From Escherichia coli (GTDB taxonomy: Bacteria > Pseudomonadota > Gammaproteobacteria > Enterobacterales > Enterobacteriaceae), in the NCBI RefSeq assembly GCF_048403405.1, contig NZ_CP183129.1: a DNA stretch of 64,000 nucleotides; one strand, given 5' to 3'. The position numbers were made by a program. Below are positions 34,201-37,200 of the stretch, piece after piece. The number at the start of each line of letters is the position of its first letter. Position 1 is the stretch's first letter.

Positions 34201-37200
34201 TTTGCTGGCGGCAGTTCAGCTGACACTGGTATTATTTTGTTTTCCAGTGCCGCACATTTAGCTTCAAGCGCATCGAATTTACGTACCAGGTACTCAGCAT
34301 TTGTTTCATTCACTTTCAGATCTCGTGGTACACATTTCCCGCGAAGAAACCCTTCCATTTCGAAAACATTCATGCGCATTTGCGTAACTCCGATAACTCG
34401 TTAAAACGTTCCATAAACATCCCGTAGGCATGGCCTGGCGACAGTGGAATCACTTTGAACATCTCTGTTGCCGGGATACCTTCCAGTACAGGCCAGAAAG
34501 AGCTATCATCAAGCCCGAGATCGCGGCGTTCGGTTGCCAGCATGATGAGATCGGCATATTTCACGGGCGTGCTCATAACCGGGGGTAACCCGTATTTCTC
34601 ACGGATTACGGCGTCTATTTTTTCTTCCATCCGTTTATAGTCAGGAAGAAGGCGTTTCAGTGGAGCGGGAATATCCTGGCAATACGCTTCTGTTGCATCA
34701 TGCATTAACGCTTCAAAAGCAAATTCCTGCGGCACCAGCTGGCTGCAAAGCACCGCATGTTGGGCGACACTGTAGAAGTGAGAAAGATGATCGGCAAAGC
34801 GGCAGATATTTGAAAGGGAAACCGCGATATCGTTAATCACGATGTCGTCTTTATTTATCCTGTCATAATAAAAATGCTTCCCGGAAAAAGTTTTAATAAA
34901 TGACATTTTGTTCTCCACGTTATATGCGCTGCACCGCTCTGAATTTTGATTGCAGCAATCCAGCCCATTTGACATGGGATGATTGCTGCAATTTTTTTAA
35001 GTTGTTGGATTTTGGCTTTTATCTTCTTTGTAAGAAAGAAGGTCACACATCAAATTAACTACCTTGCTGAATTGGAAAAGGTCAGCGCCAGTCTGATGAC
35101 GCCACTGGAATGCTTTATCATCTTCATCATTAAATGTCTGAGATTGAGTATTGATGCGCGAAAAATGGAAATTTTCGGTAAGAATGAAGGTCACACCGCA
35201 ACCGGATAACTCCATTTTATCAGCAGTGAAACTACTACTAAGGCTATCGGCCAGTTCGCTTTGAATTGACTCATGCTCAGCTGAGTAGCGAATAATTTCC
35301 TTTTGATCTGCGTAGCGTGATAGCTGAATATAATTTCCGACAGTGAATCCTTCAAATGCATTGGCTGCACCATTGATGTAGTTATTCAGGCGTGTAGTCA
35401 GTCCATTCTTGATATCACTGATGTTGATTGTTTCTGTTTTCACTGAACCGACAACCTTAATCAGCATTGCGCATACCATACCGGCTATTATTTTATTGGT
35501 TGTGTTGATTACCAATAATTTCTCATCAGTGCTGTACAATGCAAGAATCAGCGTAGACTTAACAAATGCCTGTTTGCATAGATCTACTCGTACGTTATCA
35601 ATAATGGCCAGTCGTTCGGCACGCTTTAATTTATTCCCGGACATATTTTCGATTGTTTGGATTCGAGAATTAGCTTCTTTCATGACGACATGTCGGGGAA
35701 TTATTTTCTGATCATGACGGATTACCATTGCGTACCCACCAGATATCGGAGTTACCAGTTCACCAGTGACAGGATTCTCTACAAAAGAGGACCGTGAAAA
35801 TTCTGTTTCCCCGATTTCAGAATAAGGGAGTTCGAGAAGATGACCTTCAATAGCCTGTATACTAGGTAATGTTGCTCGGTACACAATTGCGTTACGAAAT
35901 TTTGGTAATTTCATTCTATTTTCCTCTGCACAATGTATTAGTTTCTCCACAAAACAGAGAAGAACACCTGCGGTGGCAGCCGCCCGGATGGATTGGGTTA
36001 TGAGCCCGTCGTCCGGTGATGCTCTTCTCTGTTTTGTAAAAAGAGCGGTACCAGCCGGAAGCAAGTGTACAAACTGGTACCGCCAAAGCAGTGGCTGTTG
36101 TGGTGACCGGTGCTGATCTCCGGCTTGCGGTTATTTCAGACTCTCACGGGCGTTTAATTGCCCCGCCGAACAGCTCTTTTCCGCAATAGCTGCAATGTCT
36201 TTCGCGCATCAGCCTGCGCATTCACCACAACGCTAAGGATTCTCTCTGGTTGAAAATACTTAGCTGTTATGTGCCTGCTTTTAGCCACATCAGGCGAGGT
36301 GGACCTGGTTATTCCCCAACAACAAGGATTTGGTTATTATGTAACCCTCCCCAACAACGATAAGGATTTATATGGATCTATGTGTAGATAAGTATGAGGA
36401 GAGGCATGTGCCGTTAAGACAAAAGCCTCCAGTTCCTCCAAAACCACCCAAGGAAAACTGAGACTAATATGACCAGAGACGATTATAAATTTTATGTTCA
36501 CTACTCTTATGTATTGGAGAAGATGAATTACACGTTGTTAACTCGCATTGATAAATTAATAACGTTGATGTTAATCGTTCTCGGTTTTTCAGTTTTCGCC
36601 CCGTACAGTAATTTATTTATTTTCGGTTTGTTTGTTGCCGTACTTTCGGTTCTTCAGTTGGTCTATCAGTTTGGCCAAGAGGCTGGAATGTCTAAAGAGC
36701 AAGCGAGGCATTACAAAAGACTGCTGATTGAGTCTGATACCCTTCCTGAAGATCAGTTGCAAGCTAGGTATTTAAAAATCCAAGATACTGATAGTAATCC
36801 ATGGAAATCACTTGAACGAGCGGCTTTCATTCGGGCCTGTATTTTTGCTGGTGTTCCAACTAAGTACGATTTAACAACCAAAGAAAAATTTATAGCTTGG
36901 TGTGCGGGAGATCTACCTCTAGAGAATGAACTAACGGATATTAATGATGACCAACAAGCATAATCCAGTTCACGGACATGTACCTCCGAAGCCGAAACCA
37001 CCGAAACCGAAGAAATGAGACATAATAGGATTGGATAATGAGTCGACCAATAGAGCCTTTTCATATTCCACCTCGTCCCAGGCCACCAGATCCAGGCCCA
37101 AAGTGAGGGTTACTGATTTTTAAAGAGCGAAGCGTCCGGTAGGGCGCTTTTTTGGTACTAACGAATCATCCTGGACTTCATATGCCCCAGGCGGCTACTT

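Follow-up and report, generated by a model that had tools for sequence, protein, structure and literature searches.

A four-gene cassette in the immunity region

The window analyzed here is a 64,000 nt stretch of the Escherichia coli contig NZ_CP183129.1 (RefSeq assembly GCF_048403405.1), and our subject is a small cassette in the immunity region of a lambdoid prophage within it. On the + strand, positions 36372-37106 hold four open reading frames (ORFs) in the same orientation, tightly packed or overlapping: an upstream micro-ORF (U, uORF1), a gene for a 164 aa protein with two transmembrane (TM) helices, and two downstream micro-ORFs (D1 or uORF2, and D2 or uORF3). Both neighbours, a cI-like repressor gene and the early-left genes below 36288, lie on the opposite strand. 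An earlier inspection of the bare sequence (the sequence-only reading) had described three micro-ORFs around a 164 aa two-TM ORF, and all four are found on the + strand, with the first micro-ORF ending 7 nt ahead of the 164 aa start as it had stated. The GTG at 36408 that it chose as the start of this micro-ORF is too far downstream; the ATG at 36372 is most likely, since the YEE[KR]H residues encoded upstream of the GTG are conserved in orthologues and since other cargo genes found at this site begin within ~1 base of that position.

The spacings within the cassette are 7 nt, -20 nt and 19 nt, tight enough to suggest coupled translation and comparable dosage of the four products. RefSeq annotates only the 164 aa gene, as a hypothetical protein. 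The three micro-peptides are absent from a collection of ~15 billion predicted proteins, and a tblastn search of phages with the 22 aa peptide gave no match, probably owing to the low-complexity filter. An Rfam scan of 34000-40000 gave no match within the cassette, the only ones being C4 and isrK further to the right.

The micro-ORFs are conserved as genes

Close relatives of the 164 aa protein, at 55-71% identity, occur on a Sodalis-like contig and in Pectobacterium, Leclercia, Salmonella and Klebsiella, all of them at the equivalent place and convergent with a cI-type repressor. The three micro-ORFs of the window are rich in Pro, Lys and Arg and have the motif H-[VI]-P-[PL]-[KR]-x-[KR]-P-P in common; the second and third share H[VI]PP[KR]P[KR]PP written in different codons, as had been noticed earlier. 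Short ORFs with at least 6 Pro in 12 residues number 8 in the window, compared with 1.45 ± 1.1 in shuffles, and three of the eight cluster here within 735 bases on one strand. When the six-frame translation of the window was searched for H-[VILM]-P-x-[KRQ]-[PQ]-x-P, three occurrences were returned, all within these ORFs.

Orthologues of U are present in 7/7 close lineages with a ratio of nonsynonymous to synonymous differences per site (pN/pS) of 0.36, and D2 has a pN/pS of 0.17 at a synonymous divergence (pS) of 0.82, while the main gene gives 0.21-0.40 between close lineages; these ratios were computed with synonymous sites saturated (pS 0.75-0.82). D2 orthologues read MSKPIEPFHVPPKPMPPRPGK in Leclercia and MSRPVEPFHVPPRPRPPQPGK in Klebsiella. 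The class consensus is ..YEE[KR]H[MVL]P.[RKQ]Q[RK]PP.PPKP.. for U and MS[RK]P[IV]EPFH[IV]PP[RK]P.PP.PG.K. for D2, and non-proline residues (YEE[KR]H and MSRPIEPFH, respectively) are kept as well. Relative to the main gene, the downstream micro-ORFs use frame 0, 1 or 2, and they are open in every close relative. The sequence-only reading had proposed conservation at the peptide level, as opposed to a DNA repeat, and had suggested examining frame preservation at related prophage loci; the pN/pS of 0.17-0.36 at pS 0.75-0.82 and the varying frames bear the proposal out, and the micro-ORFs are open with start codons in all close lineages.

These ORFs could have been chance open frames in CCN-rich DNA, a view that their short length and their absence from both the RefSeq annotation and the 15-billion-protein collection would favour. 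However, purifying selection is seen at saturated synonymous sites, start codons and open frames are kept in all lineages in differing frames, and 27 of the 29 loci carrying the peptide motif (described below) adjoin the main protein family, when shuffles expect 1.45 such ORFs per 64 kb. The comparative sequence data effectively refute the chance-ORF view, to which we give practically no credence. Because pN/pS is low at saturated sites and the frames stay open although their register varies, we regard the micro-ORFs as genuine genes.

The peptides are linked to one membrane-protein family

In each close lineage, a single proline-rich ORF stops 7-20 nt short of the main start, and one to three further peptides are encoded downstream. 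In 6/8 close lineages, a proline-rich D1 shares the last 7-49 nt of the membrane gene, read in the +1 frame. Given how often D1 is in the +1 frame, a programmed +1 frameshift joining it to the main protein was considered and rejected as a general mechanism, because in three loci (L053, L054, L062) D1 starts after the main stop with its own ATG, GTG or TTG behind the stop codon. In Pectobacterium (P0013), the membrane protein continues in frame at its C-terminus into the first downstream peptide (..DGHIPPRPRPPAPPKAQN), and this fusion is not a sequencing error because the identical protein occurs in at least three assemblies. The cassette is present in 50 of 5,426 complete E. coli genomes, and in four of these the main gene is the same but the downstream peptides are others, with the core retained (..HVGHVPPKPRPPSPK.., ..EDHIPLKPRPSPPEPKPKSR). 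In the Klebsiella upstream peptide (L028/L052/L060/L069), the core is duplicated internally (HLPPKQMPQKP HLPPKQKPPSPPKK), so the motif is multiplied both inside a peptide and from ORF to ORF.

We scanned the DNA of 2.9 million viral contigs for H-[VI]-P-P-[KR]-P-[KR]-P-P-x-P and found 29 loci. Twenty-seven lie directly downstream of a family member (defined by hmmsearch at E ≤ 1e-50) on the same strand; the remaining two hits are long GC-rich frames. No viral locus came up in a scan with P0081. Family-wide (~35% identity), the main gene is preceded by a small ORF whose end falls 2-21 nt short of the main start, and in most lineages this ORF is proline-rich. Among the 14 distant lineages with readable upstream sequence, 11 have a proline-rich upstream ORF, ending 2-16 nt before the start, while distant members (~26-40% identity) have no downstream peptides. 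The cores of these upstream peptides include ..NFHVLPRPAPAPKPEPGQDKK in Fels-2, ..DFHILHKPAPPEEKK.. in a Yersinia P2-like phage, ..NHLNPKPIRPTPPPPSTPS.. in Providencia PSTNGR2lys, ..KFHRVHKPAPAP.., ..KFNVPHRPAPVPVRPPQR and ..HHVPIRRAPPPPPPSKP on three metagenomic contigs, ..DGQVPYRPAPAPRPPEKP and variants in another subfamily of 14 loci, and ..AHVAPKPPPPPPKQK at one further locus. The link between the peptides and this protein family is both specific and old.

The 164 aa protein has a SLATT-like fold

The 164 aa protein matches phrog_6315 (E 9e-64), whose function is annotated as unknown. Clustered at 50% identity, the family found by profile search comprises 379 clusters. Almost every full-length member is a free-standing protein of ~145-190 aa, and some family members are on phage-plasmid-like replicons. 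Neither the protein nor the family profile had a meaningful match in NCBIfam or among PDB sequences, and the Foldseek matches in AFDB50 were the family itself.

AlphaFold2 (AF2), run on a 105-sequence alignment, gave an all-helical model of the 164 aa protein with a predicted local distance difference test score (pLDDT) of 93.9 and a predicted template modelling score (pTM) of 0.86. Helices span residues 3-41, 49-66 and 68-88, with four short ones besides, so ordered that a long N-terminal helix runs into TM1 and, after a short loop, TM2 runs into a long cytoplasmic helix followed by the four shorter helices. The hydrophobic stretches read from the sequence are residues 29-46 and 49-66, and basic residues after TM2 suggest that the N- and C-termini are cytoplasmic. 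Two adjacent TM helices form a hairpin with helical cytoplasmic segments, as in SLATT proteins, and the structural likeness to recognised SLATT proteins goes beyond that of generic helical bundles. Based on the model, we assign the protein to a divergent SLATT-fold family: the structural features are there, and the profile thresholds are not reached. The sequence-only reading had found none of the four ORFs assignable to a known family, which no longer holds for this one.

Current thinking treats SLATT proteins as effectors of conflict systems that form pores and respond to activation from the cytoplasmic side; the switch itself has yet to be explained for any of them (2026 DRT10 preprint). 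They usually have nucleotide-related partner genes. This family differs in that no SMODS, SLOG, TIR or reverse transcriptase gene is adjacent in any neighbourhood examined, and its constant partners are only the proline-rich peptides of 20-45 residues. The GenBank record of Fels-2 (L002 2860-3459) leaves both the SLATT-fold gene and its upstream peptide unannotated and has STM2733.1 and STM2735 on the opposite strand instead; in Yersinia phage vB_YenM_42.18 (L003 2735-3453), both are likewise unannotated and vBYenM4218_008 is called on the opposite strand. The opposite-strand ORFs in the two records are probably mis-calls.

Possible leader peptides or antimicrobial-like peptides

A proline-rich ORF directly ahead of a membrane-protein gene raises the question of a regulatory leader. 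The micro-ORFs could act in cis, with polyproline pausing that depends on elongation factor P (EF-P) setting the level of the membrane protein and the peptides themselves being functionless; the sequence-only reading had listed such leaders among its hypotheses. The gap between the upstream ORF and the main start is always 2-21 nt, the stop of that ORF often overlaps the Shine-Dalgarno (SD) sequence of the main gene (TGAGGTGA), and PP, PPP, PPD or PPG is found in most peptides. Furthermore, RAPP-type and other arrest peptides ahead of membrane-related genes are an established class (PMC12992588). In these respects, and in a spacing that fits coupling, the cassette is similar to SecM, MifM, the RAPP-type ApdA/ApdP and EF-P pauses, where a small ORF with a proline-rich or Arg-Ala-Pro-like sequence stands directly upstream of a membrane-protein gene.

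With that said, a position coupled to a regulated gene applies to U, with its 7 nt gap, and not to D1 or D2: two of the three peptides in the window, and up to three in Leclercia, are downstream of the gene with only the terminator beyond. A PPX stall motif is present in the window peptides and is not conserved family-wide, as consecutive prolines are absent from 5 of 18 distinct upstream peptides (Fels-2 HVLPRPAPAPKPEP, L036, L083, L078 and L082). Conserved non-proline residues and a natural C-terminal fusion are not what pausing in cis would call for. RNA folding of the junction between U and the main gene and of the downstream peptide region gave z ~0, with no SD-sequestering or attenuator structure. 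The cassette peptides also differ from arrest peptides in that they have no N-terminal membrane or secretion segment with which to sense a localisation pathway. The leader hypothesis is weakened by the two downstream peptides and the upstream peptides without Pro-Pro, and we consider it unlikely.

Another option, close to a further hypothesis of the sequence-only reading, is that the peptides are themselves the effectors. They would then be phage analogues of proline-rich antimicrobial peptides (PrAMPs) that block DnaK or the ribosome exit tunnel, in the host or in a cell that an invader has reprogrammed, and the SLATT-fold protein would serve as a conduit, gate or immunity partner. According to PMC10862732, the key motif of oncocin- and apidaecin-type PrAMPs is an aromatic-flanked PRP core in which Lys can replace the central Arg, and E. 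coli grows more slowly when it expresses metalnikowin, apidaecin or Tur1a intracellularly. HIPPRPRPP, HVPPKPKPP and the FHVLPRPAP of Fels-2 resemble this motif (oncocin YLPRPRPP, apidaecin YIPQPRPP). The cassette peptides are also like oncocin, metalnikowin, apidaecin and Bac7 in having ~20 residues, a cationic character, >30% Pro (at least 25% is expected of the class) and an aromatic-hydrophobic-P-[RK]-P-[RK]-P-P core. D2 contains FHIPPRPRPPDPGPK, with overlapping PRP after Phe-His, while D1 carries PKP rather than PRP. In addition, SLATT proteins have been proposed as exporters of molecules (2026 DRT10 preprint).

The likeness rests on low-complexity sequence, however, and the aromatic residue is His or Phe and not Tyr. 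PrAMPs are secreted host-defence peptides made from precursors, whereas these are 22-29 residue phage ORFs with no signal, leader or pro-sequence, produced inside the bacterium and obligately linked to a membrane protein. Their orientation suggests constitutive production in the lysogen, where a translation inhibitor would be costly, and the PRP spacing is lost in distant upstream peptides (e.g., STPTPPPPTNTS). We find this idea quite improbable; if it is true, a prophage defence cassette would have re-invented, by convergence, a weapon of eukaryotic innate immunity.

The cassette occupies a cargo slot

The DNA on either side of the cassette (Table 1) is shared with loci that carry other genes. 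The left flank is nearly invariant among the E. coli, Sodalis-like, Pectobacterium, Leclercia, Klebsiella and Salmonella loci, stays conserved as far as the cargo start codon in ~1,500 E. coli genomes and between genera, and also precedes unrelated cargos (L040, L041, L042). One alternative cargo is a 144 aa 'ECs1072 family phage-associated protein' (L040:1573-2007) and another is a 171 aa hypothetical protein with a coiled coil and a CxxC..CxxC end (L041:1574-2089), both with the same flanks and strand. ST64B has no clear cargo ORF in the same slot. From these comparisons, the site is a variable slot for swapping accessory cargo in lambdoid prophages. The sequence-only reading had the cassette closed by its own terminator. 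A terminator is present, but it belongs to the slot and not to the cassette, because the right flank from 37115, terminator included, is conserved in loci with unrelated cargos.

The left-flank block of ~100 nt is more conserved across genera than the neighbouring genes and looks pseudoknot-like by eye. It may be the promoter or 5′ untranslated region of the cargo, or part of the early-left leader on the other strand. Beyond the terminator, a conserved unannotated element separates the slot from immunity-specific DNA; it is found in SfII, SfV, SfIV, ST64B, Yersinia and Klebsiella phages and in ~1,500 E. coli genomes, and its hairpin has three covarying pairs inside a CGAA/UUCG stem with an invariant AACAGGCAGGACGCCCACGAAGUAGCCGCC before it (- strand). 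There was no Rfam match for this element, which may be an antitermination or leader RNA of the early-left transcript. The svsR small RNA (PMC12803456) was considered as the identity of the conserved flank elements and rejected, as it lies inside the 3′ end of cI.

Likeness to loci with other repressor alleles ends at ~37223, and beyond this point similarity tracks the repressor allele. The operator-like sites in this region resemble the oR palindrome ACTAAGTAATCTTAGT at 37968. If the pL/oL-like pair between cI and the cassette is real, the cassette probably lies inside, and antisense to, the early-left transcript, and from its orientation it would be expressed in the lysogen and silenced on induction. 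The comparison with the rexAB locus of lambda, made in the sequence-only reading, stands as far as an accessory slot in the immunity region is concerned, and with a real pL/oL the position would instead be antisense within the early-left transcript. The cassette is unrelated to RexA/RexB and SieB in sequence and fold and is on the strand opposite to cI.

Table 1. Features of the cassette and of the slot around it, by position in the window.
Feature	Position	Strand	Remarks
Left flank of the slot	36272-36371	.	GCCTG..CCAC..CAGGC..GTGG, then two direct repeats CCCCAACAAC.AAGGATT; ends in SD TAAGGA 36360-36365
Upstream micro-ORF (U, uORF1)	36372-36461	+	29 aa, MDLCVDKYEERHVPLRQKPPVPPKPPKEN; SD TAAGGA 36360-36365; stop 7 nt before the main start
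164 aa two-TM protein, SLATT fold (model-based)	36469-36963	+	TM hairpin at ~residues 29-66
Downstream micro-ORF D1 (uORF2)	36944-37018	+	24 aa, MMTNKHNPVHGHVPPKPKPPKPKK; overlaps the last 20 nt of the main ORF, +1 frame
Downstream micro-ORF D2 (uORF3)	37038-37106	+	22 aa, MSRPIEPFHIPPRPRPPDPGPK
Start of right flank and intrinsic terminator	37115-37155	+	Stem ~37130-37149, loop GGTA, T-run 37148-37153; from sequence, fold and conservation
Conserved unannotated element between slot and immunity-specific DNA	37150-37235	-	Hairpin with 3 covarying pairs
pL/oL-like region	37237-37290	-	Promoter-like TTGCCA-17-TAGATT; operator-like 37239-37254 and 37275-37290; consensus matches only
LexA-family, cI-like repressor	37320-37946	-	Convergent with the cassette

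Location also bears on whether the module might have nothing to do with defence and be instead a membrane protein that times lysis or is related to holins, accompanied by small partners, or else an addiction module that simply stabilises the prophage. A two-TM hairpin is also the topology of class II holins. The gene is directly upstream of a holin and lysozyme on the same strand in an Arsenophonus phage-plasmid, and it adjoins the lysis cassette in phage EKP1. On the other hand, the window locus and all close relatives are in the immunity region, antisense to the lytic early transcript, and the cassette is absent from most related prophages, which have other cargo in the slot. A 164 aa protein with a folded cytoplasmic bundle is also unlike holins of 65-95 aa, and it matched no holin family. 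A role of this kind is doubtful in our view.

A comparison with the Rz/Rz1 spanins is invited by D1, which is proline-rich and runs in the +1 frame over the end of a membrane gene. The overlap is only 7-49 nt, however, and the module is outside the lysis cassette; D1 and D2 have neither a signal sequence nor a Cys (lipobox), and the Rz-like match to phrog_1026 has an E of only 0.42. Among the remaining proline-rich short ORFs of the window, one alone has the look of a real gene: a 61 aa ORF at 47286-47471 with a signal peptide, a lipobox-like VVSAC and proline-rich sequence in its mature part, which resembles an Rz1-type o-spanin.

Further to the right, at 39252-39453, Rfam identified an isrK Hfq-binding RNA (68.6 bits) and a C4 antisense RNA (82.3 bits), with an a1/b1 target element just under threshold (44.3 vs. 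46.7 bits). These RNAs are upstream of, and overlap the start of, a Rha/antirepressor-like ORF, and the arrangement looks like a P1/P7-type immunity circuit inside a lambdoid prophage.

A proposed peptide-controlled membrane effector

The genes are real, obligately linked and occasionally fused, and the protein they surround has the SLATT fold. The interpretation we favour, tentatively and at a little short of an even chance, is that the cassette encodes a membrane effector controlled by its peptides. This matches the third hypothesis of the sequence-only reading, a peptide-plus-membrane-protein module, and the unit sits in a cargo slot. The four cistrons would be translationally coupled, and the effector would be the SLATT-fold protein, anchored by its hairpin in the inner membrane, with a helical bundle on the cytoplasmic side and, like other SLATT proteins, predicted to make the membrane permeable. 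The proline-rich peptides would be its dedicated cytoplasmic partners, binding the cytoplasmic domain as extended polyproline-type ligands. Being unstructured and continuously made, they would most likely hold the effector inactive, with the pore closed, in the manner of an antitoxin. Loss of the peptides when host transcription or translation stops during infection, or their capture by an invading phage, would free the effector and lead to abortive infection or exclusion of the invader. The antitoxin-like direction of control and the defence role are each less probable than the module logic as such.

A physical complex at the cytoplasmic face is suggested by the coupled spacing, the fusion, the conserved non-proline residues and a tethered AF2 model. 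In that model, in which the protein and the U peptide were joined by a 30-residue Gly-Ser linker (alignment of 15 cognate protein/peptide pairs), the linker had a pLDDT of ~46 and the Pro-rich half of the peptide 76-79. The conserved His, the aromatic residue preceding it and the Arg/Lys residues argue for a specific ligand rather than an effect of composition, and the Pectobacterium fusion places the peptide at the C-terminus, which is presumed cytoplasmic. The cassette is also similar to type II-like toxin-antitoxin (TA) and abortive infection modules (e.g., lambda RexAB) in that a small, labile-looking partner comes first and is coupled to a potentially membrane-active protein. It differs from TA modules in having several paralogous peptides instead of one antitoxin, and toxicity here is a prediction only.

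Several observations weigh against this interpretation. Pfam has no match for the window protein or any of the 105 members, the NCBIfam models SLATT_1 and SLATT_4 hit 4/10 members with only 12-16 bits against cut-offs of 41-55, and PADLOC-DB v2 has no match at E ≤ 1 for any of the four products. No sigma-70 consensus promoter for the cassette was found on the + strand. The peptide-protein contact is read from pLDDT alone; expression, binding, toxicity and defence are all predictions, and that the peptides inhibit and do not activate the effector is a guess. In some phages the gene adjoins lysis genes, compatible with a lysis-related role. The peptide is also not kept everywhere. On the Arsenophonus plasmid paPv10 (L091 ~380-485), the upstream peptide has an in-frame stop before HKPAP with the membrane gene intact, an EKP1-like Arsenophonus copy (L094 ~350-500) keeps the small ORF without the proline run and again an intact membrane gene, and a Salmonella branch at 26% identity has no proline-rich upstream ORF. 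The two Arsenophonus variants are natural material for testing whether the peptide is required.

Significance

A full-text literature search turned up no account of a link between proline-rich peptides and SLATT or DUF4231 proteins, nor of phage-encoded PrAMP-like peptides. The novelty lies in the peptide partners, their arrays and the fusion; the fold class of the membrane protein is a known one. The micro-protein family is absent from the annotation of every close-lineage record examined, and it extends over hundreds of protein clusters from prophages and phage-plasmids of Gamma- and Betaproteobacteria. Gene callers are thus missing partner genes of defence-like cassettes. Should the peptides act on the ribosome or DnaK, bacterial viruses would turn out to have their own counterpart of animal PrAMPs. 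Few predicted membrane effectors of bacterial immune systems are more common than SLATT proteins, and the cassette offers a minimal SLATT-fold system in which genetically encoded peptides of 20-45 residues are the sole conserved partners, so that gating becomes directly testable with synthetic peptides and simple genetics.

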